60,193 nucleotides of DNA from a virus (lineage: Duplodnaviria; Caudoviricetes), in IMG/VR virus record IMGVR_UViG_3300030104_006323, positions 1 through 60,193 of that record. The stretch is one strand, 5' to 3'. Under the pieces are notes generated by a model. That model was not told the origin of the DNA, did not search any database, and saw nothing but the letters and a program-made list of their open reading frames with translations. Of this stretch, positions 5,632-45,791 are shown piece by piece (position 1 is the stretch's first letter; every line of letters begins with the position of its first letter). Position numbers and translations under genes: made by a program.

Positions 5632-5632
5632 T

Positions 5633-6335: not shown

Positions 6336-6893
6336 ATGGCATATCCAAAAATAACCGTAAACACTGGCTTAGCACTTCAAGTTATAGCCGCAGATTCAAT
6401 ACCAATTCCTTATCCTGGCTGTCCACAAGTGACAGGAACAAATACAGCAAATACCACCGACAAGCTTGTCGATGTGGGTGCTGACTTTTCAAATGTTGTA
6501 ATTGGTGATATTGTATACAATACAGCAACTGGAACTATTGCAACAGTTACTGCAGTTGATAGTTCTACTATATTAACCCTAAGTGCTGATATTTTTCAAA
6601 ACTCCCCCAATGATACTTATATAGTGTTTCAAGGTGGGCCAATATTTGAAAAAAGAATAGAATCGTCTTCAGGGTGTTTGCTATATATTGGATCAAGCGC
6701 TACAATATCTGGAGCTGGAGATGAGTATGTAGATGTATGTGTAGACACTGTTACTGGATCAGTGCAATCTCCTAACACTGTAACATTTAAAAATTTTAAA
6801 GTAGGAAACTACTTACCTGTTCAAGTAAAAAAATTACGAGTAAATGGAAGTAGTGCTTCGATTTTAAATCAAGTTTGTATAGCGATTTGGTAA
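6336..6893 (+). CDS. putative virion structural/decoration protein
   Basis: beta-rich T/V/S composition; C-terminal GNYLPVQV; shares a domain with 26769..27734. Confidence 0.6.
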   Translation: MAYPKITVNTGLALQVIAADSIPIPYPGCPQVTGTNTANTTDKLVDVGADFSNVVIGDIVYNTATGTIATVTAVDSSTILTLSADIFQNSPNDTYIVFQGGPIFEKRIESSSGCLLYIGSSATISGAGDEYVDVCVDTVTGSVQSPNTVTFKNFKVGNYLPVQVKKLRVNGSSASILNQVCIAIW

Positions 6894-6917
6894 ATTAATA
6901 AATTAATAAAACCTAAA

Positions 6918-7589
6918 ATGAGTAAGTTACATAAAAGTAAAAGAAGAATGGTAAAGCCCAAAGAATCAGCGGCTCCTAAAGGCGAAGGTTTAGGGAAAGC
7001 AGCAGGTGCTTTAGGTATACTTAGTAATGTTATTGGTATAGCTCAGCAGTTAAAGAAAAAACCTAAAGTTCAACAACCTAAAAAACCAGTTGAACCAGTA
7101 GCGGGTAGAGTTCAAAAACCTTATTTATCTAAAAAGAAACCTAAAAAATCTAACAAGGATATTGATAAAAAGCTGGTAACAGAAGCAGAAAAAAGTTTTA
7201 ATGTAAGAAAGGCTAAAACTCAAGGTGATAGTATTTATCTAACAAGAACTATGAGAAAGATGGGACAAGTGCCAGGAAGAGAATCATCTGCAAAACTGGA
7301 CTTTTATGAAAAGTTTGGTAAAAAGGGTGGTATGAAAAGTAAAGCTGAAATAATAAAAGCCAACAAAGAAAAATTGGCTAAAAAAAGAGCTGCTACACTT
7401 GCTAAAAGAACAAAGCCTAAAATGTCAATAAAGAAACCAAAACTAATGGGAGGTGCTTCAAAACTAATGGGAGGTGGTCAACAAAAAGGATTAAATATTG
7501 GCGTGGGGTCTGGGTTAGCAAAAATTGCTGCTCTTGGAGGCTTAGCTTATTTATTTTTCGGCAACAAAAAAAAATCAAATAAGAAATAA
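6918..7589 (+). CDS. Lys-rich protein with KPK motifs and a C-terminal hydrophobic helix
   Basis: KPKMSIKKPKLMGG; C-terminal IAALGGLAYLFF; 18-bp tandem repeat at 7438 and 7459. Confidence 0.7.
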   Translation: MSKLHKSKRRMVKPKESAAPKGEGLGKAAGALGILSNVIGIAQQLKKKPKVQQPKKPVEPVAGRVQKPYLSKKKPKKSNKDIDKKLVTEAEKSFNVRKAKTQGDSIYLTRTMRKMGQVPGRESSAKLDFYEKFGKKGGMKSKAEIIKANKEKLAKKRAATLAKRTKPKMSIKKPKLMGGASKLMGGGQQKGLNIGVGSGLAKIAALGGLAYLFFGNKKKSNKK

Positions 7590-8299: not shown

Positions 8300-9532
8300 A
8301 TGAAGCAATTAATAACATTAATATTTATACTATTAACTTTAAATGTATCTTCTCAAGTTATAGATACAGATAAAAAGGTAGAAAACAAAATTGTAAAAAA
8401 ATATAAAGCAAAAAATTTTTTTAAAAACCTTTACAAAGATATTTTTAAATACGCCACTGTTTATGTGGCAGGAGATATAGGAAATGCTTATGAAACTCCT
8501 TATCCTGATTATTTTATTAGAACTAATCCTGACGATTTATATGCAGTTCCACAAGTTGTGGATGAAACTGTTTATCATCCCTTTGATTATAGAGCTGGCT
8601 TTGGTGTAAGAAAATTAGCCAGATTTGATTATGAAATTAAAGGTAGAAACTACTATGATGGAACTGAAAACAATAAAGCGTTATCAGCTCCTACAGCAGC
8701 TGTTCAGGGTTTTGAGTATTTATTACATTGGGAAAAACAAAGACAAAGATCTGATGTTTTTACTAACTCAAGATATTTCTTAAGACATACTGGAAAATAT
8801 CATATAGTTAAAATAGAGCAAAGAGAAGTTGGAAATATAGATTTTAAATATCAGAGTGCCGAAGTTAGAGCTCGCCTGCCGATAGGTAAAAAATTTAGTA
8901 TCTCTGCGGGAGTTATCGCAAGAACACATCAAAAAGCTTTTGGATATAATCCAATAGAATTGTGGCTAAATGAATTAGATGAAAATGGAAACCCCGCAAA
9001 TTATTGGTATACTTTAGGATTTGAATATGGGTATACTGATCATTTCACATCTTATACAGATATTAACACTGGTAATGTTTTTTATGATTGGATATGGAGA
9101 AACCCTCAAGGTGAAATTGTAGCCTATGGTGATCGTGATTTTCGGGATCGTATATTTGGCTCGTTGATGAACGATTTTAATCAAGCTCAATGGGCGTTAT
9201 TAGATCCTTTTGCTGAGTACGCTCCTATTGTAGGTTTTGATTTTTATCACTACAAACCTAAGTATTGGATTCACTCCTATGCTAACTGGATATTACCATA
9301 TCATAAATACTTTAAGGGTAATGTCGACTTCAGCTACTTACATCGCGATAGTTGGGGGCTCGGGGGCCACAACAATTTACTGAAAGGTGAACAGTGGAGT
9401 GATTATCAAGGCGGGTTGATAGTCGGATGGAAAATAACAAAAACACTTGGTATATTCTTGGAAGGAGAATATACTAAATTTTGGGACTCTGAAATATATA
9501 ATAGTAGTGTCGGGTTAAATGTTAGATTATAA
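8300..9532 (+). CDS. predicted exported outer-membrane beta-barrel-like protein
   Basis: signal peptide; aromatic-rich alternating strands (FSISAGVI, GGLIVGWKI, LGIFLEGEY); C-terminal SSVGLNVRL. Confidence 0.55.
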   Translation: MKQLITLIFILLTLNVSSQVIDTDKKVENKIVKKYKAKNFFKNLYKDIFKYATVYVAGDIGNAYETPYPDYFIRTNPDDLYAVPQVVDETVYHPFDYRAGFGVRKLARFDYEIKGRNYYDGTENNKALSAPTAAVQGFEYLLHWEKQRQRSDVFTNSRYFLRHTGKYHIVKIEQREVGNIDFKYQSAEVRARLPIGKKFSISAGVIARTHQKAFGYNPIELWLNELDENGNPANYWYTLGFEYGYTDHFTSYTDINTGNVFYDWIWRNPQGEIVAYGDRDFRDRIFGSLMNDFNQAQWALLDPFAEYAPIVGFDFYHYKPKYWIHSYANWILPYHKYFKGNVDFSYLHRDSWGLGGHNNLLKGEQWSDYQGGLIVGWKITKTLGIFLEGEYTKFWDSEIYNSSVGLNVRL

Positions 9533-10008
9533 TGGAAAGGTTATCCCCACATATAACAATGGCTGAAGCTATACATTCTAATACAGCTAAAAGATTAGGA
9601 ATAGAAAACAAACCTAACCCAGAACAAATAGCGAGCATGTTAACTATTGCTGAAATGATATTTGAGCCGTTAAGAGTTTTTGTAGGTGGACCTATTAAAA
9701 TTAATTCATTTTTTAGATCTCCAGCTTTAAATAAAGCTGTAGGCGGTGCTACAAAAAACGGCAAACCTACCAGTCAACATTGTAAGGGGGAGGCGATGGA
9801 TCTGGACGATGTATATGGTCATGCTTCAAACGCTCAAATGTTTGATTGGATAAGAGCCAATTTAGATTTTGATCAAATGATATGGGAATTTGGAACCGAT
9901 GAAAATCCTGCGTGGATACATGTCTCTTATGTAGATGCGCAAGAAAACAGAAATAGATGTTTAAAAGCTTACAAAAAAAATGGCAAAACTCAATATATGG
10001 TAATATGA
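9532..10008 (+). CDS. endolysin, peptidase M15A-type Zn peptidase
   Basis: FRSPALNKAVGGA, SQHCKGEAMD (H-x6-D) and WIHVSY. Confidence 0.88.
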   Translation: MERLSPHITMAEAIHSNTAKRLGIENKPNPEQIASMLTIAEMIFEPLRVFVGGPIKINSFFRSPALNKAVGGATKNGKPTSQHCKGEAMDLDDVYGHASNAQMFDWIRANLDFDQMIWEFGTDENPAWIHVSYVDAQENRNRCLKAYKKNGKTQYMVI

Positions 10009-16754: not shown

Positions 16755-17336
16755 ATGCAATCACCTTATTGTTTCATAGTAAAACCCTATAATGATAGGC
16801 GTTATGATAACATTAAGTATTATGGTGATAAAAAGTTTTTTACCAGCACATCGGAAGAAGACCATACGGTTTCTACTCGCTTTGCTACTGTAGTTAATAT
16901 CCCTATAAAATATAACGGTAAAATTAAAATTGGTGATACCTTGGTGGTTCATCATAATGTTTTTAAATATTATAATGATATTTATGGTAGACAAAAAAGC
17001 GGCAGAAGTTGGTTAATTGATGACTTATTTTTAGTAGATTCACTTCAGTTTTATATGTATAAGCAAGATGGAAAGTGGTTTAGTCATGATAAGTATTGTT
17101 TTGTAAAACCTATACCTATGACACAAAAATATATTGAAGTAGCAGGTGAGTCGGAGGAGCCATTATGGGGAATATTAAAATATGGAAATGATCAATTAAA
17201 AAAATTAAATATAAATACAGGTGATAAAATTTCTTTTCAACCAAACAGTGAGTATGAATTTGAAATAGAAGGTGAGAAATTATATCGAATGTATACTAAT
17301 AATATAACTTTGAAAAATGGACACAAAAGTAATTAA
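16755..17336 (+). CDS. tandem GroES-like domain protein
   Basis: two repeats: CFIVKP...IKIGDTLVVH and CFVKPI...INTGDKISF...FEIEGEKLYRM, each resembling a Cpn10 barrel. Confidence 0.6.
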   Translation: MQSPYCFIVKPYNDRRYDNIKYYGDKKFFTSTSEEDHTVSTRFATVVNIPIKYNGKIKIGDTLVVHHNVFKYYNDIYGRQKSGRSWLIDDLFLVDSLQFYMYKQDGKWFSHDKYCFVKPIPMTQKYIEVAGESEEPLWGILKYGNDQLKKLNINTGDKISFQPNSEYEFEIEGEKLYRMYTNNITLKNGHKSN

Positions 17337-17592: not shown

Positions 17593-19819
17593 TTTATATA
17601 ATCTTTGTAAAGGACTTATTCCACAAAGTATTTTAACTCGTAAAAATAAAGCGAGAACTTGGCAGTATGGATATAATGAAAAATATGATATTGTTGTTAT
17701 TTCTAAAAATGGAACGATAGGAGATATTATTTTTGTATCAGGATTAAGAATTGCTTTACCAGCCGTACCCTCTAAAATATTTAAAAGGTCTGATAAAAAG
17801 TCTGAACAATATTGGGAAGTAAATCCTATACCTCCTGTTTTAAAACGAATTTCTACTATATTTCAATGGCACGAAGCTCCTTCAAATTTTAAAAATCAAT
17901 GGGTTGATTATATTGAAGAAGAGTTCAATAGAAGAGAAGAAGGTTTTTGGTTTATGAATAATGGTATACCTACTTATATTACAGGTACACATTATATGTA
18001 TTTACAATGGACCAAAATAGATGTAGGTTATCCAGATTATAGAGAGGCAAATAGAATTTTTTATATTTTTTGGGAAGCATGTAAGGCTGATAAAAGAAGT
18101 TTTGGAATGTGTTATTTAAAAATAAGGCGTTCAGGTTTTTCTTTTATGAGTTCGTGTGAAGGAGTAAACACGGGAACTATAACTAAAAATGCAAGAATAG
18201 GTATCTTATCTAAAACTGGATCTGATGCGAAAAAAATGTTTACAGATAAAATAGTTCCTATCTCAAATAACTATCCTTTCTTTTTTAAACCGATACAAGA
18301 TGGTATGGATAAGCCTAAAACAGAATTAGCTTATAGAGTTCCTGCTTCCAAAATAACAAAAAAAAATATGTTTAATGTTGAAGAAGAAGTATTGGAAGGA
18401 TTGGACACTACTATTGATTGGAAAAACACATCGGATAATAGTTATGATGGTGAAAAACTACAATTATTAATACATGATGAAAGTGGTAAGTGGGAAAAAC
18501 CTGAAAACATTTTAAACAACTGGCGTGTTACAAAAACTTGTTTGAGATTAGGAAGTAAAATTATTGGTAAATGTATGATGGGATCTACTTCAAATGCGTT
18601 AGATAAAGGTGGAAGAAATTTTAAAAATCTTTTTAATGATTCTGATTGCACCAAACGAAATGCAAATGGTCAAACCAAGAGTGGGTTATATTCTTTGTTT
18701 GTTCCTATGGAATGGAACATGGAAGGATTTATAGATAAATTTGGTATGCCTGTCTTAGATACTCCTGCTCAAGAGGTCGTTGGAATTGACGATGAATACA
18801 TTTATCAAGGCGCTGTAAATTATTGGGAAAACGAAGTTATATCTTTAAAAAATGATCCTGATGCTTTAAATGAATATTACAGACAATTTCCTCGTACAGA
18901 ATCTCACGCTTTTAGAGATGAAAGTAAACAGTCAATATTTAACTTAACTAAATTGTATCAACAAATAGATTATAATGATGGAATTATTAAAGAGCATTTT
19001 ATTACTCAAGGATCTTTTAGTTGGGAAAATGGAATTAAAGATACTAAGGTGGTTTGGAGTCCGAATAAAAGAGGAAGATTTTTTGTAACTTACTTACCTA
19101 AACGCTCACTTCAAAATAATGTTATTAGGAAAAACAATAGATACTTTCCTGGTAATGAACATTTAGGAACATTTGGTTGTGACTCTTATGATATATCGGG
19201 AGTAGTGGTAGGTAAAGGGTCTAACGGGTCTTTACATGGTTTAACAAAGTTTAGTATGGAAGAAATTCCAAGTAATCATTTTTTTTTAGAATACATAGCC
19301 AGACCACAGACTGCTGAAATATTTTTTGAAGAAGTATTGATGGCTTGCGTTTTTTATGGTATGCCTATTTTATGTGAAAACAATAAACCTCGTTTATTAT
19401 ATCATTTTAAAAATAGAGGATATAGAGGGTTCTGTTTAAATAGACCCGATAAACATTATAACAAACTTTCAAAAACTGAAAGAGAATTAGGTGGTATACC
19501 AAATACTTCAGAAGATGTAAAACAATCACATGCTTCTGCAATAGAATCGTATATAGAAAAATATATAGGATTAGAAACAGAGGGCGTACATAGAATGGAA
19601 GGTGATATGGGTAGTATGTATTTTCAAAGAACATTAGAAGATTGGGCTAAATTTGATATAAACAATAGAACTAAATATGATGCTTCAATTAGTTCTGGTT
19701 TAGCTATAATGGCTAATCAAAAACACTTATATACACCGACTAAAGAAAAGACAAAAATTAGCATTAACTTTGCAAGATACAATAACAGCGATAAAGTTAG
19801 TCGAATTATTAATAAATGA
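17570..19819 (+). CDS. terL: terminase large subunit
   Basis: Walker A-like KIRRSGFS, Walker B LLIHDESGKW, MGST coupling motif, nuclease GCDSYD; precedes the portal. Confidence 0.9.
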   Translation: MQNLNQNSLYNLCKGLIPQSILTRKNKARTWQYGYNEKYDIVVISKNGTIGDIIFVSGLRIALPAVPSKIFKRSDKKSEQYWEVNPIPPVLKRISTIFQWHEAPSNFKNQWVDYIEEEFNRREEGFWFMNNGIPTYITGTHYMYLQWTKIDVGYPDYREANRIFYIFWEACKADKRSFGMCYLKIRRSGFSFMSSCEGVNTGTITKNARIGILSKTGSDAKKMFTDKIVPISNNYPFFFKPIQDGMDKPKTELAYRVPASKITKKNMFNVEEEVLEGLDTTIDWKNTSDNSYDGEKLQLLIHDESGKWEKPENILNNWRVTKTCLRLGSKIIGKCMMGSTSNALDKGGRNFKNLFNDSDCTKRNANGQTKSGLYSLFVPMEWNMEGFIDKFGMPVLDTPAQEVVGIDDEYIYQGAVNYWENEVISLKNDPDALNEYYRQFPRTESHAFRDESKQSIFNLTKLYQQIDYNDGIIKEHFITQGSFSWENGIKDTKVVWSPNKRGRFFVTYLPKRSLQNNVIRKNNRYFPGNEHLGTFGCDSYDISGVVVGKGSNGSLHGLTKFSMEEIPSNHFFLEYIARPQTAEIFFEEVLMACVFYGMPILCENNKPRLLYHFKNRGYRGFCLNRPDKHYNKLSKTERELGGIPNTSEDVKQSHASAIESYIEKYIGLETEGVHRMEGDMGSMYFQRTLEDWAKFDINNRTKYDASISSGLAIMANQKHLYTPTKEKTKISINFARYNNSDKVSRIINK

Positions 19820-22251
19820 AACAAGTAGAAGTTAACTTAAAAGCAGCTGCATTTCCAGATGAATTTGCTACCGATGCACAGAAAGATACAATGGAATATG
19901 GGCTCCAAGTTGGACAGGCTATTCAATATGAATGGTTTAGAAAAGATAATGGAGCTTGTAGGTATTTGAATCAATGGGGCGAGTTTAATAGATTAAGGCT
20001 TTATGCAAGGGGTGAGCAATCTGTCGCTAAGTATAAAAATGAAATTGCTATTGACGGTGATTTATCTTATCTTAATTTAGATTGGACACCCGTTCCAATT
20101 ATACCTAAATTTGTAGACATTGTAGTAAACGGTTTAAATGATCGTTTGTTTAAAGTAAATGCTTTTGCAGAAGATGCAATGTCGGCAGAGAAGCGAGATA
20201 GTTTTCAGAAAAAAATTGAAGGAGAAATGTTAGCTAAGCCTTTGTTCAAACAAATTGAAGAAGACTTTGATTTAAATGTTTTTCAAACCAATGAGGATGA
20301 GCTTCCAGAAAGTAATGAGGAGCTGGAACTTTACATGCAAATGAAATATAAACCAGCTGTAGAAATTGCAGCTGAAGAAGCAATAGATACTGTATTAGAA
20401 CAAAATCATTATCAGGATATTCGTAAGAGAGTGGACTATGATATAATGACTTTAGGAGTTGGAATGACAAAGCATCAATTTTTACCTGGTCAAGGTATAC
20501 AATTAGATTATGTTGATCCCGCAAATGTTGTTTACAGTTACACAGAAGATCCTTATTTTAAAGATTGTTTTTATTGGGGTGAAATAAAAACTATTCCTAT
20601 GGCAGAGCTGGTTAAAATAAATCCTGACATAACTAATGAAGATATGGAAGAGATTGCTAAATACAGCCAATCCTGGTATAATTATTATAACAATGCTCAG
20701 TTTTACGAAAACTCTTTATTTTACAGAGACACTTGTACTTTATTATATTTTAATTACAAGACTACACACACTTTTGTCTACAAGAAAAAAGAAATGCCAG
20801 ACGGTACTTTCAAAGTAGTTCAGAAAGATGACACCTTTAATCCGCCAGAAGAAATGATGGAAGAAGGAAAATTTGAAAGAGTAGAAAAAAAGATTGAAGT
20901 ATGGTATGATGGTATTATGGTTATGGGAACAAACATTTTATTAAAATGGGAGCTGGCTCAAAACATGGTTAGACCAAAGTCTGCAAGTCAACACGCTCTA
21001 CCAAATTATGTAGCATGTGCGCCAAGAATGTATAAGGGAATGTATGAATCGTTAGTAAGAAGAATGATTCCTTTTGCTGATTTAATACAGGTCACTCATT
21101 TAAAACTACAACAAGTAATATCAAGAATGGTCCCAGACGGTGTTTTTATAGATGCTGACGGACTTAATGAGGTAGACTTAGGGACAGGTAACGCCTATAA
21201 CCCTGAAGATGCTCTAAGGCTTTATTTTCAAACAGGTAGTGTGGTCGGAAGAAGTTTCACTCAAGATGGTGAATTTAATAATGCTAAAGTTCCAATTACA
21301 CAACTTACCTCTAATAGTGGTGGAGCAAAAATGCAAATGCTCATACAAAACTATAATCATTATTTAAACATGATTAGAACAGTTACTGGTTTAAATGAAG
21401 CCAGAGATGGAACTTCACCTAATCCTGATGCTTTAGTGGGTGTTCAAAAATTAGCTGCATTAAATTCTAATACCGCAACAAGACATATATTAAACGCAAG
21501 TTTGTTTATAACTAAAAGATTAGCAGAAGGTATTGTTTTAAGAACTGCAGATGTATTAGAATATTCAGAGTTTAAAAACCAATTTGCTATGCAGATCGGT
21601 AAGTACAATTTAAATTTATTACAAGATATTAAAAATTTATATCTATTTGATTTTGGAATATTCTTAGAGTTGCAGCCTGATGAAGAAGAAAGAGCTATGT
21701 TAGAAGCTAATATACAAATGGCTTTATCTAAAAACGATATTAATTTAGAAGATGCTTTAGATATCAGAGAAATACATAATCTTAAAATGGCTAATCAATT
21801 ATTAAAAACTAAGCGTAAAAGAAAAGCTCAAGCAGAACAACAGCAAGCTATGCAACAGCAAGCTAATGCTGCGGAAATGCAACAACAAAATGCGATGTTA
21901 GCTGCTCAACAAGAGCAACAAAAAATAGCAGCTGAGACTCAATCCAAAATGCAAATAAAACAAGCTGAAATTGCAATGGAAATTGAAAAAATGAAAAATG
22001 AAGCTTTGTTAAAATCTCAACTTATGCAAACTGAGTTTAGCTATAATATGCAATTAAAAGGTATTGAGCAGTCTCAAATAGATAAAAGAGAAGAGGCAAG
22101 AGAGAAAGGAAAGTCTGATAGAATAAGTCAAGCTAACACACAACAGTCTAAACTAATAGAACAAAGAAAAAGAAATTTACCACCAATAAAGTTTGAATCT
22201 ACTGAGGATACTTTAGATGGTTTTGATTTAGCAGAATTTGGACCTAAATAG
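19816..22251 (+). CDS. portal protein
   Basis: 811 aa after terL; PIIPKFVDIVV and TGLNEARDG motifs; Gln-rich C-terminal coiled-coil barrel. Confidence 0.85.
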   Translation: MKQVEVNLKAAAFPDEFATDAQKDTMEYGLQVGQAIQYEWFRKDNGACRYLNQWGEFNRLRLYARGEQSVAKYKNEIAIDGDLSYLNLDWTPVPIIPKFVDIVVNGLNDRLFKVNAFAEDAMSAEKRDSFQKKIEGEMLAKPLFKQIEEDFDLNVFQTNEDELPESNEELELYMQMKYKPAVEIAAEEAIDTVLEQNHYQDIRKRVDYDIMTLGVGMTKHQFLPGQGIQLDYVDPANVVYSYTEDPYFKDCFYWGEIKTIPMAELVKINPDITNEDMEEIAKYSQSWYNYYNNAQFYENSLFYRDTCTLLYFNYKTTHTFVYKKKEMPDGTFKVVQKDDTFNPPEEMMEEGKFERVEKKIEVWYDGIMVMGTNILLKWELAQNMVRPKSASQHALPNYVACAPRMYKGMYESLVRRMIPFADLIQVTHLKLQQVISRMVPDGVFIDADGLNEVDLGTGNAYNPEDALRLYFQTGSVVGRSFTQDGEFNNAKVPITQLTSNSGGAKMQMLIQNYNHYLNMIRTVTGLNEARDGTSPNPDALVGVQKLAALNSNTATRHILNASLFITKRLAEGIVLRTADVLEYSEFKNQFAMQIGKYNLNLLQDIKNLYLFDFGIFLELQPDEEERAMLEANIQMALSKNDINLEDALDIREIHNLKMANQLLKTKRKRKAQAEQQQAMQQQANAAEMQQQNAMLAAQQEQQKIAAETQSKMQIKQAEIAMEIEKMKNEALLKSQLMQTEFSYNMQLKGIEQSQIDKREEAREKGKSDRISQANTQQSKLIEQRKRNLPPIKFESTEDTLDGFDLAEFGPK

Positions 22252-22257: not shown

Positions 22258-22803
22258 ATGTTTGATGATTTTAATATCACTAAATACAAACATAAAAAAT
22301 TTCCTGCTGACTTTTCTTTGAAAACATTAGGAGAAATAAAACAACTTCAATCAACTCCAGTTAATTCTTTTTACGCAAACAAATACGATAATATTAATAA
22401 TGTATTTAAAAAAATATTTGAAAACCGTAAAAGAATTTATCCAGAACCTTTAGTTCAAGAGTTAATATCTAAGAGTCAGCCATTAATTTTGAAACTTAAA
22501 AATTATCATGGCAGAAAAAGACCTTATATATTATCTAAAAATTATAATATAGATTTGAATTATGCTGAATTAAAATCTGCAAAAACGCCCTCATACCCTT
22601 CTGGTCATTCAACACAAGCAAAATTAGTAAGTTTAGTTTTGTCTGATATTTTTCCTGAAATGAAACCAGAGTTTGATAAAGCGTCAGATCATATTTCTCA
22701 GAGCAGAATTGTAGCTCGCGTACATTATGAATCAGATAAAAAATTTGGGGAGGAGTTGGGTCAAGCCCTTTATAGTCATTTTAAAAACACCCAAAATAAA
22801 TAA
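22258..22803 (+). CDS. PAP2-superfamily phosphatase/haloperoxidase-like protein
   Basis: all three motifs: KNYHGRKRP, PSYPSGH, SRIVARVHYESD. Confidence 0.85.
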   Translation: MFDDFNITKYKHKKFPADFSLKTLGEIKQLQSTPVNSFYANKYDNINNVFKKIFENRKRIYPEPLVQELISKSQPLILKLKNYHGRKRPYILSKNYNIDLNYAELKSAKTPSYPSGHSTQAKLVSLVLSDIFPEMKPEFDKASDHISQSRIVARVHYESDKKFGEELGQALYSHFKNTQNK

Positions 22804-22840: not shown

Positions 22841-23980
22841 ATGGAAATAAAAGTAAAAGCAGTGGACGGCAACACTCAAAAATCAAAAGCCGAAATTGAA
22901 GAGCAGTTATTGCAAAAGCATGAAGCTCAACAAAATGAGAATCAAACTGAGGAACAACCTGAAAAGGTCGAGCCTCAAGCAGAGGTGAAAGAAACAACTA
23001 AGGAGGAAGCTCCAGTTGTAGAAGAAAAAACTCCCTCGTCAGAGTTAAATGACGAACATGTTCTTAATTTTATTAAAGAGAGATATAATAAAGACATTAA
23101 TTCTGTTGAAGAATTATTTGAAGCGAAAGAATCAAATGTAGATTTACCAGAAGATGTTAAATTGTATTTCGATTATAAAAAAGAAACAGGCCGTGGCATC
23201 GAAGACTTTTATAAATTACAAAAGAACTACGATGAAATGGACGAAGATTCTGTTTTAGCTGATTATGTTAGTATGCAAGAGGAAGGTCTTGATGCTATAG
23301 ATATTCAAGATATATTAGAGGATAAATTTTCTTTTGATGAAGAAGAAGATGAACCGAAAGATATTAAGAAGAAAAAATTAGCTAAAAAAAGAGAGCTTGC
23401 AAAAGCAAGAAAGTTTTTTAAAGAGCAGAAAGATAAGTATAAAGTTCCTCTTGAGTCAAGTGGGGGTGGATTATCTGATGAACAAGAAAACAATCTTAAT
23501 GCTTACGCGAAGATGATAGAGCAATCTAACTCTCAGAAGAGTCAAGCACAGCAGAGTAGAGAGCATTTTGAAACACTTACAAACCAAGTGTTTGGCGATA
23601 ATTTCAAAGGTTTTGATTTTAGCGTTAGTGATGATAAAACTCTTACTTATAAACCTGGTACTGCTGAAGAATTGAAGAACAAACAAGTTGATGTTAATAA
23701 TTTTGTTTCAAAATTTACTGACAACAACGGGATGATGAAAGATGCTGCGGGATACCATCGCGCTTTATCTTTAGCTATGAATCCTGAAAAGTTTGCTAAA
23801 TTCTTTTATGAGCAGGGTGTTGCCGCAACAGTTGATGATGTGGCAAGAAAGTCTAAGAATATCAATATGGATGTTCGTAGAGCCCCGCAATTAAGTACCA
23901 AAAATAGTTTAAAAATTAAAGCTGTAGGAGACACTTCAAGTGGTAGAGGGCTCAAAATTAGAAGTATTAAAAAAGTTTAA
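22841..23980 (+). CDS. putative capsid scaffolding protein
   Basis: acidic, E/K-rich and helical; immediately upstream of the capsid gene. Confidence 0.7.
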   Translation: MEIKVKAVDGNTQKSKAEIEEQLLQKHEAQQNENQTEEQPEKVEPQAEVKETTKEEAPVVEEKTPSSELNDEHVLNFIKERYNKDINSVEELFEAKESNVDLPEDVKLYFDYKKETGRGIEDFYKLQKNYDEMDEDSVLADYVSMQEEGLDAIDIQDILEDKFSFDEEEDEPKDIKKKKLAKKRELAKARKFFKEQKDKYKVPLESSGGGLSDEQENNLNAYAKMIEQSNSQKSQAQQSREHFETLTNQVFGDNFKGFDFSVSDDKTLTYKPGTAEELKNKQVDVNNFVSKFTDNNGMMKDAAGYHRALSLAMNPEKFAKFFYEQGVAATVDDVARKSKNINMDVRRAPQLSTKNSLKIKAVGDTSSGRGLKIRSIKKV

Positions 23981-23999: not shown

Positions 24000-25472
24000 A
24001 TGGCAGTAAATATTAGCCCTGGCTTCGACTTACAACCATCCGCTCAACAGGTTCCTGTTGAAACGAATTATATCAAAGATTTTGATTTCTTGAATCAGTA
24101 TCTACCAGATACTTACGAGAAAGAATTTGAAAGATATGGTAATAGAAGCATTAGTTCGTTCCTCCGTATGGTAGGAGCAGAAATGCCTTCTAACTCTGAC
24201 CTTATTAAATGGGCAGAGCAAGGAAGATTGCATATTAAATACAAAGCATGTACCTCTGGATCAGCAGCGGGTACAGATTCTGGAGCAGTTTGGACGATTC
24301 CAAATAACCTTACCAACTTTAACCCTGCGTTAGCTAACCCTAACACAGCAAAAGATGCTAAGAATGTTATTAGAGTTGGACAAACCGTTATGATTTCTGA
24401 TAACACACCAGGTTCAAGTTTAACAAACAAAGCGATTGTTACAGCTGGACCAACTAACGCAAACCCTAACCAGTTTACAGTAGCTTATTATGAAGCAGCT
24501 GGACAGGCTATGGCAGCGGGAGTTGCATGTGATATCTTTATCTACGGTTCTGAATTTGCTAAAGGAACTGAAGGAATGGTAGGTTCATTAGAATCTGATG
24601 ATTTCTTCTTTGACAACAAGCCAATTATCTTAAAAGATAAGTATTCTGTATCAGGTTCTGATATGGCGCAAATTGGCTGGGTTGAAGTAAGCGGTGAAGA
24701 CGGAGTAAGTGGATACTTATGGTATCTAAAGTCTGAGCACGATACAAGACTAAGATTTGAAGACTACATGGAAACAGCTTTAGTAGAAGCAGTTCCAGCT
24801 GAAGCAGCTTCAGGTGCTGGTGACTATTTACAAGGTACAGGTGCAGCTGCGTCTGTTGCTGGACTAAGTGGTTCTAAAGGTGTATTCTTTGAAGTAGGTG
24901 CAAGAGGAAATGTTTATGGTGGTGGTAATCCAACATCATTAGCTGATTTCGACAGCATTATTCAAAGATTAGACAAGCAAGGAGCTATTGAAGAAAATGT
25001 AATTTTCGTAAATAGAAACTTCTCATTTGATATTGACGATATGTTATCAACACAAAACTCTTATGGAGGTGGTGGTACATCATATGGTTTATTTGATAAT
25101 GACGAAGAAATGGCCCTTAATCTTGGATTCTCTGGATTTAGAAGAGGTTACGACTTCTATAAGTCTGATTGGAAATATCTAAATGACCCAACTATGAGAG
25201 GTGGATTAGTAGCAGGTGGTATCAATGGACTATTAGTTCCAGCTGGTTCTACTTCAGTTTATGACCAAATACTTGGTAAAAACGCTAAGAGACCATTCTT
25301 ACATGTAAGATATAGAGCTTCTGAAGCTGAAGATAGAAGATATAAAACTTGGATCACTGGTTCTGCTGGTGGAGCGAGAACATCTTCTTTGGATGCAATG
25401 GAAGTTAACTTCTTATCTGAAAGAGCAGTTTGTGTCTTAGGTGCAAACAACTTCTTCTTATTCCAAAACTAA
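24000..25472 (+). CDS. major capsid protein
   Basis: 490 aa after the scaffold; strongly biased codon use; followed by a terminator; WAEQGRLH and RRYKTWITGS motifs. Confidence 0.85.
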   Translation: MAVNISPGFDLQPSAQQVPVETNYIKDFDFLNQYLPDTYEKEFERYGNRSISSFLRMVGAEMPSNSDLIKWAEQGRLHIKYKACTSGSAAGTDSGAVWTIPNNLTNFNPALANPNTAKDAKNVIRVGQTVMISDNTPGSSLTNKAIVTAGPTNANPNQFTVAYYEAAGQAMAAGVACDIFIYGSEFAKGTEGMVGSLESDDFFFDNKPIILKDKYSVSGSDMAQIGWVEVSGEDGVSGYLWYLKSEHDTRLRFEDYMETALVEAVPAEAASGAGDYLQGTGAAASVAGLSGSKGVFFEVGARGNVYGGGNPTSLADFDSIIQRLDKQGAIEENVIFVNRNFSFDIDDMLSTQNSYGGGGTSYGLFDNDEEMALNLGFSGFRRGYDFYKSDWKYLNDPTMRGGLVAGGINGLLVPAGSTSVYDQILGKNAKRPFLHVRYRASEAEDRRYKTWITGSAGGARTSSLDAMEVNFLSERAVCVLGANNFFLFQN

Positions 25473-39323: not shown

Positions 39324-42300
39324 ATGGACGAAAAACAATTACAATTATTATTTGAGCTCATAAAAGATGGGGGTGATCAAAGCATTGAAGATGTAGATGT
39401 TTTACAATCTATAATTGAAAACGAGGGCATAGGTGTTTTATTTCCTGTATTGCCCGAAGGTGCAGTTGAAACCCCTCAAGAATTACAAAGTCTGTTTCCA
39501 GACTTAAAAAAAAAAGATTCTTCCGACTTGTCTGGTCAAACGGAAGGTATGGCATCTCCTACAGGAATGGACTCTTTCAATGTTTCCTTGGATGCAGATG
39601 TTACTGACCCCAAAGGATTACGGTACGGAAGTAATGTAGCAAATACCCGAGAACAAGATACCGCATTAGAAAGAACCTTTGGTAAAAATTTTGTTACCGA
39701 TTTTTTTGGCGACATGTATCGAGCTGGAGCTCAAGGCTTGGGACAAGGCGCAACAGTTGATGATGCAATAGGCGCTTATATTCAAGGATCTTCAATGTCC
39801 GAAGAAGCTATACAAGATTATATAAATGCAGTTAAAGCAAGTGAAAGATCAGGAATGTCTGATGAAATGAAAAGCTTTAATAATATATACGAAAATAATG
39901 GTGGAGGTGTATTGGGTTTTATTAAAGGTGTAGGTATGAACCCCTCAGTTTTACCACAATTACTTATATCTTCATTTGCCTCCATGGCAAACCCAACAGT
40001 TGCTGCGGGAGCGGGAGTGGGTGCAGGAATAGGAGCAGCTACAGGCGCAGGAATAGGAGCGGCAGCTGGATCCGTAGGAACACCAGTAGGTTCGGCAATA
40101 GCTGGTGTAGTAGGTGCTGGTTCAGGAGCAACCTTTGGCGCGTTTGCTGGAGCAGGTGCTACACTTGAAACAGGGCTTGCATTTACAGAGTTTTTAAAAG
40201 AAGAGATAGCTGAAAAAGGATTGAAGTTTGATAACGAAGGAATCAAAGCTGTATTAGATGACCCAGTAGCTTTACAAAGCATACGAAATAGATCTGCAGG
40301 AAGAGGTTTTACTATTGGTATTATTGATGGTATAGGAAGAGGGTTAGCAGGAAAATTAGCAGGTGGTTCAATTAAAACTGCCAAGGCAGCAGGTAAAGCA
40401 ATTAGTGGAGGACAAAAAGCAAGGGCAGCCTTAGGAGCTTTAGGAATCGAAGCTGTTGCTGGAGGTACTGGAGAAACGGCAGGTCGAGCTGTAGCGGGAC
40501 AAGAAATGGATGTTGCTGAAATAGGTTTTGAAGCTATAACTGGAGTTCAAAGCGGTGTCTTTACTGTGCCAGAAGCAGTAACAGGAAGAACAATAACAGA
40601 TTTATTAGGAGTAAACAATATGGGAGTAAATGTTTTTGCTCCACCTGTTTATGGAATTAAAAATAAAAAAGGTGTTGTTCAAAAAATGTCTAAGGATGAG
40701 TTGATGAAGTTTGTGAACACTGCTAAGCCGCAGGATATCAGAACCATGCAGTTTGAAATTAAAAATGATACAGAAATACAGAAAATAATTGACGATAAAA
40801 AACAAGCTGCACAAATTGAATTAGATTTACCAGATTTTGTTCAAGGTGAAAATAGAGCCGAAATGGTAAAGTTAGAACAGGAGTTACGAAACATACAAGA
40901 CCCTGATTTAAAAGCTAACCAGATTAGAATAAAACAAATTAATCAAGAGTTAGATGCGCTTGTTGAAAAAGCACAGAACGAGTCTAAGCAAACTCCGCAA
41001 AAAGTTACTACCTTTACAGAAGAGCAAGCTATTAATGAATTGCAATCAGAGGGTGTGGAAAATCCTACCCCTGAACAAATAAAAGAAAAATTAAATGCCC
41101 TTCAAGAGTCAAGCACAGCGCAGGTGGATGTACAAGAATCTACCGAAGGTAGCCCAGCAGTGGGAGAGGGAGACGCCTCAGGGATCATTACCGAGGAGGG
41201 TCAAGCCCAAAACCAAGGTGAGAGCAAGCCTGTTGAAACGCAAACGCAAGAGGAAATAAGTGTCAATGTTGCACCATTTTTTGAAACCTCTATTGAATCT
41301 ACAACAGAGGCAAGTGGTTTAAGAAAATCTCCACAGTATAACGAATACAAACAACGACTTCAAGATATTGCAAATGATATTGGTGTAGAAGTAGAGGTTG
41401 AAGAATCAGTAGGTGGATATGTAAATGAAGCAGGAAATAAAATAAGAGAAGTTAGTAATGTAGTAACCTTAAAGAATACTACATTAGATAAAGCGGCTGA
41501 ATACGCTGCACTTACTGCTGCGTTAGCTCCTGAAGTTCAAGAGTCAAGCATTGCTGCAGAGTATACTGTTGATCAAGCTGAAAATCATAATGGTAACGAA
41601 ATAACAATAAAAGTTTCTGATAGCGAAGGTACATTCCAAGCCCTGCAAGAAGCAGGTATTGATGAATATACTTTGAGCGAAACAAAAAATTTATTATCTT
41701 TGTTGGACATCTTTGATTTTAGTGATCCTCAAAAGGATGCTAAGCTTGCAAAGTTATTAGATATATTAGACAAAAAAAATATTACCTATGAAGTCGCAGA
41801 CAAAAAAGCAATCAACTCAAGATTTATTGACAAGAAGAGCAGGCAACAGATTCTTTCAGATGGTAGACAAAGCGCCATTCAACAACAACAAGAAGGGTCA
41901 AGCCTTTATAAGAAAATCATCTCAGCGATAAACCGTGATGCTGAAAAGCAAGGAATAACTCCAAACGAATATATAAGTACACCTCGACAGCAGATAACTG
42001 ATGCTGAAGGAAACATTGTAGACCCTGACATCAAAGAAATGGTGAGGTCAAAAAGAGTACAAAGTATTATTGATGATATAGTTAAAAAAACTGAAGAGAG
42101 ACAACAGGTTAGGGACGATGGTGGAAAAACTAAAAAGAAAAGAAGAGCAAAGAAAAAAGAAACGCTTCTTCAAAATACTCTAAATTATTTACAAAACTCT
42201 AAGTTGTATCAACAGCTTGATGATGTATCTCGAGAAAGATTAGTTACTGAATTAAATCAAAAACTTGGTATAAAAATTAAGAAAGCAGCGATACCTTCAT

Positions 42301-45300
42301 TTGTAAAACCAAAAGATAAAAAGATTGTAGTCAATGAAAGAGTAGCGCTAAAGGATCAAATAAAACTTGAAGTTAAAGCTGCAAGAGAATCTGCTAAGGC
42401 TTATAAAAAATCTATGCAAAACATAGCTGCTGAAGTCAAAGGATTGCGTAGAGGAAGAAAAATTTCTACTGCACAATCAAATGCAATTACATCTCGTTTA
42501 GCTAATGTAAATCTAAATAGTAAAAAATCTGTTGAGAATTATTTAAAATTTGTAGATAGAGTATTTACTAAAGCTGAAAGTATAGAAACACTTAGATCTG
42601 CTAAAGTAAAAGCTAAGAGAGCTAAGAAACAAGTTGGTGGTAGAAAGACAGGTGGTATACCAAACGCATCCAAAGTTATATTAGAAAACTTATTTAGCAT
42701 AAATCCATTTGCTATACCTGACGAGAAGGTAGATGCTTATTTAGATTTAGTAAACCAATTCGGCACTACAAGAACCCAAGTTCAACTTAACAGAAACCTT
42801 AGAGAAAATGTTGCTATCGCAGAAGATATATTAAATGCTGTATACCAGGATGCTGAAGCTACAATAGAAGCAGCGCCAGCAGAAGTAGAAGCAAAAGAAT
42901 ATAATTTATCTCAAGCGGTGAAAGAAATAAAGCAAGATGTAATTAGAGATTCAGAAATAAATCAACTACAAGATGAGGCTCAAAAACAAGATGCCAGAGA
43001 TATACAAAAGCTTACAAGTGAAGATATTAAATCATTAGTTACTGAGAAGAAAGATGGAACTAAGGATTACTCTATGGTTGAAAAATTAAGAACAGGTAAA
43101 CAACAAATACAAAATGGAGTATTGGTAAAAGATATTACGGATATTTTGACTGAAGTAGATAAAAACAGAAGAACCAAAACTCTGGATAATTTAAAAAAGA
43201 AAAACGGTGAAAAGGTTTTAACTCAGCCAAATGAAAAAAATATTTTAGATAGAATTGTAAACTATGGAAGCTCAATTAAAGCAGCATTAAGTTCTTCTAC
43301 AAATTTTCTGGTTGACAAATTAGAAGGTCAATCAACATTTTTTATTGATGATGTATTAGGTAACTTTAATAGTAAAGCTATTTATGACAACACTATTGGT
43401 GCCATAGGTAGAGCTTATTCAAAATACAATACGGAAACTAATCTTGCATACAAAACTATAGATCAAGCAGACGCTGTTTTAGAAGGAGATGTTAGCAAGG
43501 TTAGAAGAAAATTAGGAATTACAAAAAGCACAAACAGCGTTATAGAATCAAAATATAAAGTTAGGTTATATCAATTACAAAGAGAGCATGAAGCAAATAT
43601 AGTAGATGGAAAACCTAATAGTAAAGCTCCACCAGCGATGGAGTTTGCAGACAAAACTGTAAATAATAAAAATGTATTAGATCCATACTCTAAAACAATA
43701 CTTAGAAACCTTATGGATAAGTATGGTAAAGACGGAGTGATAGATGCAAAGGCGATAGAAAAAAGTTTTACACCAGCTGAAAAAAAATATTTAAAACTTA
43801 TTGATCAGGCTAATCAAAGCTTAGCGAACAAAGCAGTTTATATTTCTGGTTCTTTACACGGTAATAAAATTAATTTGCTTAATGATTACACACATCATGC
43901 TGTATTGGATACAGATAAAAGAAATGAAGATTCAAACCTTTTAAGAAAAGAACAAAGGTTTACTAATTTACCTTCCACTAAATCTGCAACCATAGTAGAA
44001 AGAACAGCGGGTGCAAAACCTATTAGTTTTGATCCATCGTATTCTGCAAGAAGAGGTATTCAAGAAACTAATCTTGATTACTATATGACGAGAGAAGTAA
44101 GAACGGTTAGAAAAACTATAAATCAGTTAATAAAAAACGCTGAAGCATCGAACAATCAAACGGCAGTGGATGTTGCCGATGCTCTAAATGATGTGGTGTT
44201 AAATAGATTACAAACAGTATTTCAAAAATCTTTTTCTGACATGACAGTGCTGGATAAAATTGGAGGTCCTATAGCTAAAATTGGTTACTATCAATCATTA
44301 GCATCCGCTCCAAGAATGCTTGTTGAAATGGGATCTAACTTACTAATGATGGTTAAGAATCCAAAACTTGCAGCTCAATCTTTCAAAGAATATTCTGGTA
44401 TTACACTTACTAATCCAGATAGGGTAGAGATAGGAACTAATTTTTTAAATAAAGCTGGGTCAGCTGTAACACAAAAATTATATAATATAGATGAGTTAGG
44501 TGGAAAGATGGCAGACCTTAACGAATTTATTAGGCCAGATCAATCTAACTCCCAAGCAAGAAGTGAGGTGGCTAATAAAGCTTTACAGATTTTAAAATAC
44601 CTACCCTTCAAACAAACAGCTAAAGGTGTGGATAAAATGTCAGCAAGACTATTATCTTATGGAGATCAAGCTATATCAAGACCATTGTGGTTTGGTACAT
44701 TCAACAGCGCTCTACAAAAAGCAGTTAAAAAATATAACAAAGAAAGTATAGGTAATTTAACTCCTGAAGAAATAAAACTTTTTTCAGAAGGCAAATCTAA
44801 ATTTAATAGTCCTAAATATAAACAAGCTGTTGAAGCTGCAACTAAAGCTGCAGATAGAAATGCTATTACTGTAGCTTCATCTACCAATCCATTCGATGGT
44901 ATTGGTAAGAATATGATTAAACCTTCAGATTCATTTTTGAAAAGAGCTTACAAGCAAGCTAATAGATTTATGATTAGGTTCCAATTATTTGAATTTGGTA
45001 GTGCAAGACATGCAATAAATGCTTTATATAAATCAGGAGACATAAGCAAGTCAGAAGCAGCAGGATTACTTACAGGCGTTAGCATGAGAATGACAATGTA
45101 TATGGTTGGATATACCGCACTTACACAATTATTTGATGAAGAATTATTTGGAGCTGAAGAAAAAGAAGAAGATAAAGAAAAAGATTTTGCTTCTTTATTA
45201 GCAAGGCAGTTTATTGGTTCTACTTTAAGTTTAGGATTAAGAAGACAGTTAGGTAATATACCTGCAATCCCAGTCAACTTTATGATTGAACACGGAATTA

Positions 45301-45791
45301 ATGAACCATTCTTAGGAAGTATAAGAAATGGTGAAGAATATGATCCTTATAAACATTCTCTTATATTTAATCAATTAGGAAAACAAGATCTTCAAAAAGA
45401 TTTTGGATTAAATTTAGACACCTTAATTAGAATATTTGGGGGACCATATGGGCCATTAGCTAAGAGTTTATTGCGTACTGGTAGAGTAGGAAGCAGAGCT
45501 GTGTTTAATAAAACAGAAGCTGGTAGAGAAAAGAACATTGATGAGCTCACAAACAGAATGACAATAGAGGTATTAGGTAACTTAGGTCTCTTACCGTTTT
45601 ACAAAGACATTAGACGAATTATTTTAAAACAGATGTACGGGAAGTCATCAGTACCATATAAACCTATTAAACAGCCTGATAGCGAGTTTCTTGAGGACCT
45701 GGACTTTGATAATGAATATGATATGGATGGTATATATGATGAGGATCTGGATATAGAAGACATGGATTTTATGGACATAGATTTTGATTAA
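39324..45791 (+). CDS. large ejection/internal virion protein 3 (2155 aa)
   Basis: G/A-rich membrane-insertion-like segment (about 40000-40170), long helical body, very acidic C-terminal tail. Confidence 0.65.
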   Translation: MDEKQLQLLFELIKDGGDQSIEDVDVLQSIIENEGIGVLFPVLPEGAVETPQELQSLFPDLKKKDSSDLSGQTEGMASPTGMDSFNVSLDADVTDPKGLRYGSNVANTREQDTALERTFGKNFVTDFFGDMYRAGAQGLGQGATVDDAIGAYIQGSSMSEEAIQDYINAVKASERSGMSDEMKSFNNIYENNGGGVLGFIKGVGMNPSVLPQLLISSFASMANPTVAAGAGVGAGIGAATGAGIGAAAGSVGTPVGSAIAGVVGAGSGATFGAFAGAGATLETGLAFTEFLKEEIAEKGLKFDNEGIKAVLDDPVALQSIRNRSAGRGFTIGIIDGIGRGLAGKLAGGSIKTAKAAGKAISGGQKARAALGALGIEAVAGGTGETAGRAVAGQEMDVAEIGFEAITGVQSGVFTVPEAVTGRTITDLLGVNNMGVNVFAPPVYGIKNKKGVVQKMSKDELMKFVNTAKPQDIRTMQFEIKNDTEIQKIIDDKKQAAQIELDLPDFVQGENRAEMVKLEQELRNIQDPDLKANQIRIKQINQELDALVEKAQNESKQTPQKVTTFTEEQAINELQSEGVENPTPEQIKEKLNALQESSTAQVDVQESTEGSPAVGEGDASGIITEEGQAQNQGESKPVETQTQEEISVNVAPFFETSIESTTEASGLRKSPQYNEYKQRLQDIANDIGVEVEVEESVGGYVNEAGNKIREVSNVVTLKNTTLDKAAEYAALTAALAPEVQESSIAAEYTVDQAENHNGNEITIKVSDSEGTFQALQEAGIDEYTLSETKNLLSLLDIFDFSDPQKDAKLAKLLDILDKKNITYEVADKKAINSRFIDKKSRQQILSDGRQSAIQQQQEGSSLYKKIISAINRDAEKQGITPNEYISTPRQQITDAEGNIVDPDIKEMVRSKRVQSIIDDIVKKTEERQQVRDDGGKTKKKRRAKKKETLLQNTLNYLQNSKLYQQLDDVSRERLVTELNQKLGIKIKKAAIPSFVKPKDKKIVVNERVALKDQIKLEVKAARESAKAYKKSMQNIAAEVKGLRRGRKISTAQSNAITSRLANVNLNSKKSVENYLKFVDRVFTKAESIETLRSAKVKAKRAKKQVGGRKTGGIPNASKVILENLFSINPFAIPDEKVDAYLDLVNQFGTTRTQVQLNRNLRENVAIAEDILNAVYQDAEATIEAAPAEVEAKEYNLSQAVKEIKQDVIRDSEINQLQDEAQKQDARDIQKLTSEDIKSLVTEKKDGTKDYSMVEKLRTGKQQIQNGVLVKDITDILTEVDKNRRTKTLDNLKKKNGEKVLTQPNEKNILDRIVNYGSSIKAALSSSTNFLVDKLEGQSTFFIDDVLGNFNSKAIYDNTIGAIGRAYSKYNTETNLAYKTIDQADAVLEGDVSKVRRKLGITKSTNSVIESKYKVRLYQLQREHEANIVDGKPNSKAPPAMEFADKTVNNKNVLDPYSKTILRNLMDKYGKDGVIDAKAIEKSFTPAEKKYLKLIDQANQSLANKAVYISGSLHGNKINLLNDYTHHAVLDTDKRNEDSNLLRKEQRFTNLPSTKSATIVERTAGAKPISFDPSYSARRGIQETNLDYYMTREVRTVRKTINQLIKNAEASNNQTAVDVADALNDVVLNRLQTVFQKSFSDMTVLDKIGGPIAKIGYYQSLASAPRMLVEMGSNLLMMVKNPKLAAQSFKEYSGITLTNPDRVEIGTNFLNKAGSAVTQKLYNIDELGGKMADLNEFIRPDQSNSQARSEVANKALQILKYLPFKQTAKGVDKMSARLLSYGDQAISRPLWFGTFNSALQKAVKKYNKESIGNLTPEEIKLFSEGKSKFNSPKYKQAVEAATKAADRNAITVASSTNPFDGIGKNMIKPSDSFLKRAYKQANRFMIRFQLFEFGSARHAINALYKSGDISKSEAAGLLTGVSMRMTMYMVGYTALTQLFDEELFGAEEKEEDKEKDFASLLARQFIGSTLSLGLRRQLGNIPAIPVNFMIEHGINEPFLGSIRNGEEYDPYKHSLIFNQLGKQDLQKDFGLNLDTLIRIFGGPYGPLAKSLLRTGRVGSRAVFNKTEAGREKNIDELTNRMTIEVLGNLGLLPFYKDIRRIILKQMYGKSSVPYKPIKQPDSEFLEDLDFDNEYDMDGIYDEDLDIEDMDFMDIDFD
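41095..41259 (+). CDS. nested +1-frame gene, 54-aa basic protein MPFKSQAQRRWMYKNLPKVAQQWERETPQGSLPRRVKPKTKVRASLLKRKRKRK
   Basis: hand translation; A-rich leader AAAAGAAAAATTAA-ATG; local rise in GC; resembles stand-alone MPFKSxAQRxW phage proteins as recalled. Confidence 0.7.
   Translation: MPFKSQAQRRWMYKNLPKVAQQWERETPQGSLPRRVKPKTKVRASLLKRKRKRK

Follow-up and report, generated by a model that had tools for sequence, protein, structure and literature searches.

Within a 60,193-base stretch of phage DNA, the whole of an IMG/VR virus record (IMGVR_UViG_3300030104_006323, estimated to be 96% complete) and here called the window, we analysed a putative small gene lying inside a much larger one. 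The larger open reading frame (ORF), at 39324..45791 on the plus strand, has 2155 codons and encodes a giant virion (structural) protein which matches phrog_32588 and whose nearest cultured relative is gp18 of the Elemovirus phages. The phrog_32588 profile matches the giant protein before the overlap (profile 90-454) and in its C-terminal part (941-1643), a conserved glycine-rich N-domain is encoded at 39624..40850 (+), and Pfam revealed no recognisable enzyme domain in the protein. As an earlier note on this DNA had claimed, an ATG at 41095 opens an ORF in the +1 frame of the giant gene, 41095..41259 (+), comprising 54 codons and a TAA stop (41257-41259), and its peptide of 54 amino acids (aa) reads as that note had it, with an MPFKS N-terminus, two short predicted helices, a loop with the pattern ETP...LP.R and a basic tail whose C-terminus is a Lys/Arg run. 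In the host frame, the same DNA (41094..41258, +) translates as codons 591-645 of the giant protein into an acidic low-complexity linker.

The acidity of the main frame and a local rise in GC had both been pointed out before, and both are borne out. Net charge is -11 in the host frame versus +17 in the small frame, and the overlap has 52.7% GC versus 35.0% for the giant gene, a value reached in only 1.8% of the gene's windows of 165 nucleotides (nt). The start context is A-rich as had been described, the 25 nt before the ATG being 64% A, which is equalled by 1.6% of the giant gene's 125 ATGs. The length of the ORF alone is within chance, since 29% of 500 codon shuffles of the giant gene yielded an alternative-frame ATG-initiated ORF of at least 54 aa. 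In our comparisons it is homology that, unlike length, puts the nested ORF far beyond chance.

The MPFKS family of small proteins

When the peptide was compared with 5.8 billion proteins using phmmer, 18 matches were obtained at an E-value (E) of <=0.01, the best of them (5.3e-12) being a 54-aa protein with 65% identity over 100% of the query. All 18 are 42-73 aa long, start with MPFKS and have a common layout; the window's exact peptide was not found among 15 billion called proteins. Stand-alone relatives in other phages had been mentioned in the earlier note, and tblastn confirmed them in phage records, where they begin at the same Met. The marine phage 023Pt_psg01 has an annotated stand-alone 39-aa family gene, and Streptomyces Flowerpowervirus phages have a stand-alone 72-aa family gene adjoining the holin. 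The small gene of 023Pt_psg01 stands two genes upstream of the GroES gene, and in Phage C75C1 (OQ984151.1) an unannotated stand-alone member of 34 codons (34 aa; L003:1501-1602) occupies a gap between annotated genes. A search at the DNA level of 50,697 phage records gave no matches.

To extend the family, we aligned 101 distinct members and used the alignment as a profile (A1). Against 1.84 billion proteins, the profile matched 4257 representative clusters at E<=1e-3, of which 612 remained when the threshold was lowered to E<=1e-10. In nearly all of them the module lies at residue 1. The 150 best matches comprise 82 proteins shorter than 100 aa and 68 of 100-761 aa, and a Pfam scan of 42 long relatives found a domain above the curated cut-off in seven, the fused domains being InPase, S-AdoMet lyase/DUF3293, DUF5661, Cupin_2, EncFtn-like, HerA central and IF3_C. 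In the IF3 case (P0041, 128 aa), the MPFKS module is joined directly to an IF3 C-terminal domain (Pfam E 1.5e-40); as a single case on a possibly chimeric contig, we set this fusion aside as evidence. The case for a tie of the module to glycine-zipper regions is weak, a Gly-rich uncharged window occurring in only six of the 68 long relatives, a figure with no background count beside it. In contigs of bacterial and archaeal genomes the family was found at 257 places in many phyla, mostly on contigs of metagenome-assembled genomes, and stand-alone genes of less than 100 aa account for 53 of the 80 bacterial or archaeal loci kept.

Across the 101 members M1, P2, S5 and Q8 are invariant, F3, K4 and A7 are present in at least 90%, and P17, A20, W23 and L32-P33, followed by the basic tail, form near-invariant columns; the window peptide has all of the former and conforms to the latter. 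The family signature, M-P-aromatic-K-S-x-x-Q, begins at the initiator Met. Whole-module similarity, the start motif and the conserved columns together make the window peptide a member of this family. By contrast, membership in Pfam family DUF3008 (PF11450) was rejected, as there is no Pfam profile match and the sole support is a lead from the ESM Atlas, whose nearest named cluster carries the DUF3008 label (0.85).

Nesting in related phages and selection on the two frames

To see how the gene is placed in relatives, we scanned viral contigs with the peptide, which found 292 relatives; the best 80 loci were kept and the window added, making a first set of 81. In 70 of these the small gene is nested wholly inside a longer ORF, always in the +1 frame of its host. 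The hosts of 64 nested copies are ORFs of 868-3139 codons, counted within the limits of the loci, and those of the other six are ORFs of 287-410 codons, and phmmer linked 41 ORFs in 40 first-set loci to the window's giant protein. A second set was collected with a probe independent of the nested gene, namely the N-domain of the giant protein alone (window 39624-40850; alignment A2), which gave 78 loci at 33-68% identity, five of them too short to judge. A family member is nested in the +1 frame just after the N-domain in 58 of the 73 judged loci, the small ORFs having 43-64 codons. One more of the 73, L090, has an intact small gene, but compared with L110 and L092 it has lost 2 nt at a point 30 nt ahead of the nested ATG (L090:5500-5700), which disrupts the frame of the giant gene; the loss might reflect either natural variation or faulty assembly.

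The nearest cultured relatives of the phage are the Flavobacterium Elemovirus podophages, whose gp18 is annotated as a 3694-aa 'structural protein'. In Flavobacterium phage elemoF_6-3D (NC_055853.1) the gp18 gene holds an unannotated 42-codon family member in the +1 frame (L086:6380-6508). About 400 nt upstream in the same frame, at L086:5984, another start reads MPFKSKKLMK before it meets a stop, and resembles a duplicate that has decayed. With tblastn, the N part of the window's giant protein matched nothing in phage records, and its C part reached the Elemovirus phages only, at 22% identity; these phages are not treated in PMC7077304. An ORF wholly inside another on the same strand and kept across relatives is an embedded overlap, and this is what was found in 58 of 73 loci and in Elemovirus gp18. 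The earlier note had held that a spurious frame would betray itself by the lack of stand-alone homologues and by frequent +1-frame stops in close relatives; the search turned up stand-alone genes and these 58 nested copies instead.

We then examined the start region. The 25 bases at 41070..41094 (+), which are A-rich, unstructured and without a Shine-Dalgarno (SD) sequence and which carry a small-frame TAA directly before the ATG, would be the likely translation initiation region of the nested gene. Gene starts across the window are A/T-rich and likewise lack SD sequences, and none of 90 distinct nested copies has an SD-like pentamer upstream of its ATG. Over these 90 copies, A reaches frequencies of 0.69-0.90 at positions -14 to -11, 0.70-0.94 at -7 to -5 and 0.74 at -2, with single values of 0.90 at -13, 0.78 at -12, 0.88 at -11, 0.76 at -6 and 0.94 at -5. 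The minimum free energy of the segment from -25 to +16 is 0.0 kcal/mol in the window and -0.74 on average, versus -4.39 for other windows of the same genes, and in 83 of 83 loci this segment is less structured than the gene mean. According to passages of PMC6847099, weak structure together with A at -3, -6, -12 and -13 promotes SD-less initiation in Flavobacterium johnsoniae. The start region appears to fit internal initiation of this Bacteroidota type, and from the Elemovirus kinship and the start contexts we infer a Bacteroidota host for the phage. Parts of 40600-41800 are represented in short RNA-library contigs, among them 40983-41270, which takes in the whole nested ORF. In these contigs DNA carry-over is possible and the nested gene is inseparable from the host mRNA, so that they neither establish transcription nor speak to translation.

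The position of the start also bears on programmed frameshifting as the source of the basic peptide, by which either a +1 slip on the giant ORF would end in the peptide or a -1 slip from the nested ATG would fuse the module to the C-terminal 1500 residues. A-rich basic tails can favour ribosomal slippage, and the long relatives, in which the module is in frame at the N-terminus of proteins of 100-761 aa, show that a 'module plus cargo' layout occurs. However, M1 and P2 are invariant in the 101 sequences, stand-alone relatives begin at the same Met, and a small-frame stop so closely precedes the ATG (within 12 codons in 81 of the 90 nested copies, abutting it in the window) that no space is left for an upstream +1 shift. 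In the window's small ORF, moreover, no X_XXY_YYZ heptamer was seen by eye in the last ten codons. We consider frameshifting improbable.

To determine which of the two frames is under selection, we compared nucleotide and amino-acid variability in 64 distinct nested sequences, using their first 27 codons, which align without gaps. Among nucleotides, position 3 of the small frame varied most (0.84) and its position 2, which is host position 3, varied least (0.36). Amino-acid entropy was 0.72 in the small frame, with 11 of the 27 columns invariant, versus 1.27 in the host frame and 1.23 in the third frame, which is non-coding. Differences that alter the host protein and are silent for the small one were 2.76-fold over-represented, while the converse class was down to 0.53. 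The test was repeated on 44 distinct sequences from the N-domain-selected set (one dropped for register) with the same outcome: nucleotide entropies at small-frame positions 1, 2 and 3 were 0.75, 0.54 and 0.91, amino-acid entropies were 0.97 in the small frame, 1.49 in the host frame and 1.51 in the third frame, and the two ratios were 2.21 and 0.73. In every one of 47 distinct nested ORFs, moreover, the small frame was closer to the window than the host frame was, mean identities being 57.6 and 44.2, respectively, and 41.7 for the third frame. Thus, the analysis of synonymous variation proposed in the earlier note, along with preservation of the ATG, came out in favour of the gene, with substitutions following the small frame and M1 invariant in the 101 members. 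As far as these alignments tell, purifying selection acts on the small protein's sequence.

The host frame was tested separately. Keeping the small peptide fixed, we drew synonymous codons from the host gene's usage for 93 distinct nested ORFs, using exact conditional sampling in place of naive synonymous resampling, which had left too few open sequences. The chance of the host frame staying open was 1.0e-4 as a geometric mean over the 93 nested ORFs and 1.0e-3 for the window. Given openness, the expected net charge of the host frame was +6.7 and the observed mean was -12.1; the host frame was more acidic than expected in 92 of the 93 loci, and at the 1% level in 90. As a control within the family, 14 distinct stand-alone members average 4.4 stops (range 1-9) in the frame equivalent to the host frame. 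Third positions of these 14 have 20% T and 33% G, versus 3% T and 51% G in 65 nested copies, and the local rise in GC arises because G replaces A or T at the small gene's silent sites. Selection is thereby detectable on both frames, which makes the stretch dual-coding, and by this analysis the host frame is selected only to stay open and acidic, through the synonymous third positions of the small gene.

These data also allowed us to weigh the possibility that there is no second protein, the conservation being that of a linker motif of the giant protein or of an RNA element and the small frame a by-product. A host-frame pattern, D/N-A-I-Q-E-S/P-S ... V-D-V-Q-E, does recur, and the host frame is demonstrably selected for openness and acidity. 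Host amino-acid variability, however, equals that of the non-coding third frame (1.49 versus 1.51), host third positions are the least variable, the reverse of a normal host coding frame, and the small frame matches an independent family (E 5e-12), in whose stand-alone genes the host-equivalent frame is full of stops. This explanation is even less probable than frameshifting. Least credible of all is that the 2155-codon ORF is an artefact, two genes flanking the small gene joined by an assembly error, as the broken frame of L090 and the giant ORF in two pieces in L008 and L092 might suggest, since 58 of 73 independent contigs keep one frame through the small ORFs, phrog_32588 spans both sides as one protein, and in 14 DNA runs of 10 studies the stretch is covered at 0.57-1.00 of its sampled words.

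We therefore turn to the reading that 41095..41259 is a real nested small gene in a dual-coding stretch, independently initiated on late mRNA. Several points weigh against it. Use of the peptide to collect the first locus set introduced an ascertainment bias, which is why the tests were repeated on the N-domain set; in that set 14 of the 73 judged relatives have no copy in the giant-gene locus, and one complete record (G002, 100%) is without any copy of the small gene; and internal initiation within a translated ORF may be inefficient. With these points counted, we put the probability of this reading at roughly 0.8. The claim that a real nested gene was overlooked by gene callers, a basic peptide being encoded within an acidic segment, is strongly supported by the comparative evidence. 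The word 'overprinted', which the earlier note had used, turns the history round: thousands of relatives, either stand-alone or fused at the N-terminus, mark the small frame as the older of the two, and the acidic linker is the secondary reading. Relatives outside the overlap clade, both in unrelated phages and on contigs from many bacterial phyla, rule out a de novo overprint, as they show the embedded frame to be ancient. On sequence comparison, then, the dual-coding stretch contains a gene that already existed and was captured.

Host genes and relocation of the nested gene

For the 14 relatives whose giant gene has no copy, we looked for a family member elsewhere in their records. In six, the gene lies in the +1 frame inside the N-terminal acidic part of a gene of about 400 codons, between the portal and major-capsid-like genes; in one it directly follows the stop of the giant gene; and in seven no copy was found in the record, six of these records being 41-69% complete. 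The host of about 400 codons (400 aa in L166) is a homologue (34% identity, E 1e-48) of the window's 379-codon scaffold-position gene at 22841..23980 (+), which stands between the portal gene (19816-22251, phrog_6547) and the major-capsid-like gene (24000-25472, phrog_13704) and has no nested gene in the window. Together with six loci of the first set, this alternative host was found in 12 loci (E 3e-21 to 2e-55), in all of which the small gene is in the +1 frame by coordinates. The window also has, between the portal and scaffold-position genes, a gene for a 181-aa protein of the PAP2 superfamily (phosphatase-like; 22258-22803), with a Pfam E of 9e-7, just above the cut-off.

In five first-set loci the beginning of the small gene coincides with the stop of a giant ORF or falls one base beyond it, these ORFs having from 1608 to at least 1998 codons; in L016, the giant ORF before the small gene is homologous to window residues 993-2142 and the record has one copy of the small gene. 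The layout with the small gene right after the giant gene thus occurs in six loci altogether. A weak +1-frame resemblance to the module, without an ATG, was seen at L138:3843-3935, near the start of a giant ORF otherwise without a nested gene (tblastn E 0.003, against a very small database); this could be what is left of a former copy.

On the tree of the N-domain, five scaffold-nested phages form one clade inside the giant-nested phages, with a value of 97 in the Shimodaira-Hasegawa-like approximate likelihood ratio test (SH-aLRT), and the giants of scaffold-nested phages are without a strongly acidic segment after the N-domain. On the tree of the small protein, cysteine-bearing scaffold-nested copies group with giant-nested copies, including that of Elemovirus (SH-aLRT 99), which hints at further exchange. 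Several host switches were considered, as the small-protein tree needs eight changes, of which starred branches force two, but they were not accepted, because the approximately unbiased (AU) test leaves a single scaffold-nested clade unrejected (p 0.07). Because of this AU result and the single clade on the N-domain tree, only one relocation is secure.

The following course of events is consistent with these data. A pre-existing small gene lies in the +1 frame in the linker-coding part of a giant virion-protein gene, and the small protein would be made from the internal ATG on the late mRNA, after an unstructured A-rich stretch that Bacteroidota ribosomes would use without an SD sequence. It may be co-produced with head-interior proteins and act on or with packaged DNA. 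In relatives, the stretch sits in the giant gene, in the scaffold-position gene, directly after the giant gene or free. We also put forward, tentatively, that the stretch is a portable 'frame-proofed' cassette, its synonymous sites tuned so that the -1 frame reads as open, acidic and disordered, and that it could be inserted into the linkers of different head-interior genes (giant and scaffold-position) and moved from one to another while leaving them unbroken.

Possible function and comparison with known systems

To obtain clues to function, a model of the small protein was predicted with AlphaFold2 from the 101-sequence alignment. It has a mean predicted local distance difference test score of 83, with helices at residues 6-15 and 17-26 and a basic C-terminal helix at 40-53, and the conserved ETP...LP.R motif lies in a loop between the hairpin and the C-terminal helix. 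The module is strongly basic and has conserved aromatic residues, and its coding sequence in this phage group always lies within or beside genes whose products are expected in the head interior. It is possible, though we would not call it the expected outcome, that the small protein works inside the head, where it would bind nucleic acid or serve as a tether and act on or with packaged DNA. The module may also be a docking or tethering unit, a role made possible by the fact that it heads thousands of phage proteins, some with polyvalent-type domains.

The database searches weigh against assigning such a function. When the AlphaFold model was compared with PDB folds, nothing matched at E<=0.001, and the top rows were fragments of glutamate receptors without meaning here; a sequence-profile search of the PDB gave nothing below E 0.19; and a search of BFVD returned uncharacterised family members only. 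No Pfam family matched the window peptide at E<=1, nor did any match the relatives P0003, P0004 and P0012 at that threshold, while P0013 and P0021 had only weak matches to other families below the cut-off. PHROG_1375, a family of unknown function, matched the window peptide weakly (E 0.029), and its positions 17-46 align with the module in relatives (E 8e-6 to 9e-4). Gene neighbourhoods point the same way, as the stand-alone relatives L050, L053 and L061 lie among genes of DNA metabolism or other non-structural genes and the stand-alone relative L070 has neighbours without assigned function. Stand-alone relatives among DNA-metabolism genes call for caution in tying the whole family to virions.

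The main alternative to a DNA-binding role is that the small basic protein takes part in assembly as a partner for acidic, disordered regions of the proteins inside the head, namely the giant and the scaffold-position protein. In this phage group the gene is always embedded in, or translationally adjacent to, the genes of these two proteins, both of which have acidic regions, so that the charges are opposite. Stand-alone and fused relatives, however, occur in unrelated phages and in contexts without such hosts, and these stand-alone relatives need no pairing of the peptide with the acidic segment that the earlier note had proposed. We regard such a partnership as unlikely, and less likely than an action of the small protein on or with packaged DNA.

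Two well-known arrangements invite comparison. In phage lambda, Rz1 lies inside Rz in the +1 frame, and in other phages spanin pairs are embedded, overlapped or separated. The window resembles embedded spanins in that a small gene lies wholly inside a larger gene on the same strand in the +1 frame and that its relatives are nested, adjacent or apart. Unlike them, however, the window peptide has no Cys and hence no lipobox, its host is a giant virion protein and not an i-spanin, an endolysin match is found far off, at 9532-10008, and the nested gene has thousands of free-standing relatives and two host genes. On these grounds an Rz1-type o-spanin was rejected. Classical overprints are those of phiX174, E in D, B in A, and K, which share with the window the derivation of two proteins from one stretch of DNA and an adaptive conflict between frames. 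In de novo overprinting, the subject of a review (PMC8227390), the embedded frame is novel and taxonomically restricted, whereas here the embedded frame is ancient and the host linker is the novel reading. PHROG_1375 and DUF3008 are also families of small viral proteins, neither of them with a known function.

The host protein itself invites comparison with the polyvalent phage proteins, as described in passages of PMC5512222 (Iyer et al. 2017), in being giant, multi-part and encoded among virion genes. The InPase, DUF3293/S-AdoMet lyase and ParB-like domains of long module relatives are of kinds described there for polyvalent proteins, which are packaged in the virion. The window's giant protein differs from these in having no recognisable Pfam enzyme domain. 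Nested genes are not mentioned in those passages of PMC5512222, and 'overlapping' occurs 0 times. Full-text literature searches found no paper on the MPFKS family or on nested genes in giant phage virion genes.

Elsewhere in the phage's own record the small protein has no second copy, a search for one returning only the one occurrence. The link that the earlier note had drawn to the HEXXH protein at 4508 stands as far as the letters MPFK go, but only four residues are shared and a profile comparison gave a probability of 2.4%, so that by sequence the link is a four-residue coincidence. The cluster of basic ORFs that it had described in the same region is there, as regards charge only, with net charges of +25, +89, +4, +21, +23, +19, -5 and +47 for the ORFs in 2944-7589. 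Within this run, 3562-4506 encodes a 314-aa Lys-rich product (net +89) with no PHROG match and no Pfam match above the cut-off. The window also encodes GroEL-like (192-1793; phrog_5725, E 2e-136) and GroES-like (16755-17336; phrog_13932) chaperonins.

The small protein is absent from the annotation of an abundant marine phage group, including a cultured genus, because gene callers forbid fully nested genes. If the tentative reading as a portable cassette holds generally, giant phage virion genes would be a systematic hiding place for unannotated small genes. The usual story of overprinting is reversed here, the embedded gene being old and the host linker new, with selection measurable on both frames and the cassette found in two host genes, and this provides a concrete, testable model for how extra genes are packed into the disordered linkers of giant virion proteins. 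The analysis also brings to notice a very large family of uncharacterised modules, with thousands of clusters, and, if the proposed role is true, the MPFKS module may be a widespread tether by which proteins are bound to phage DNA or to the inside of the capsid and so delivered into the host.

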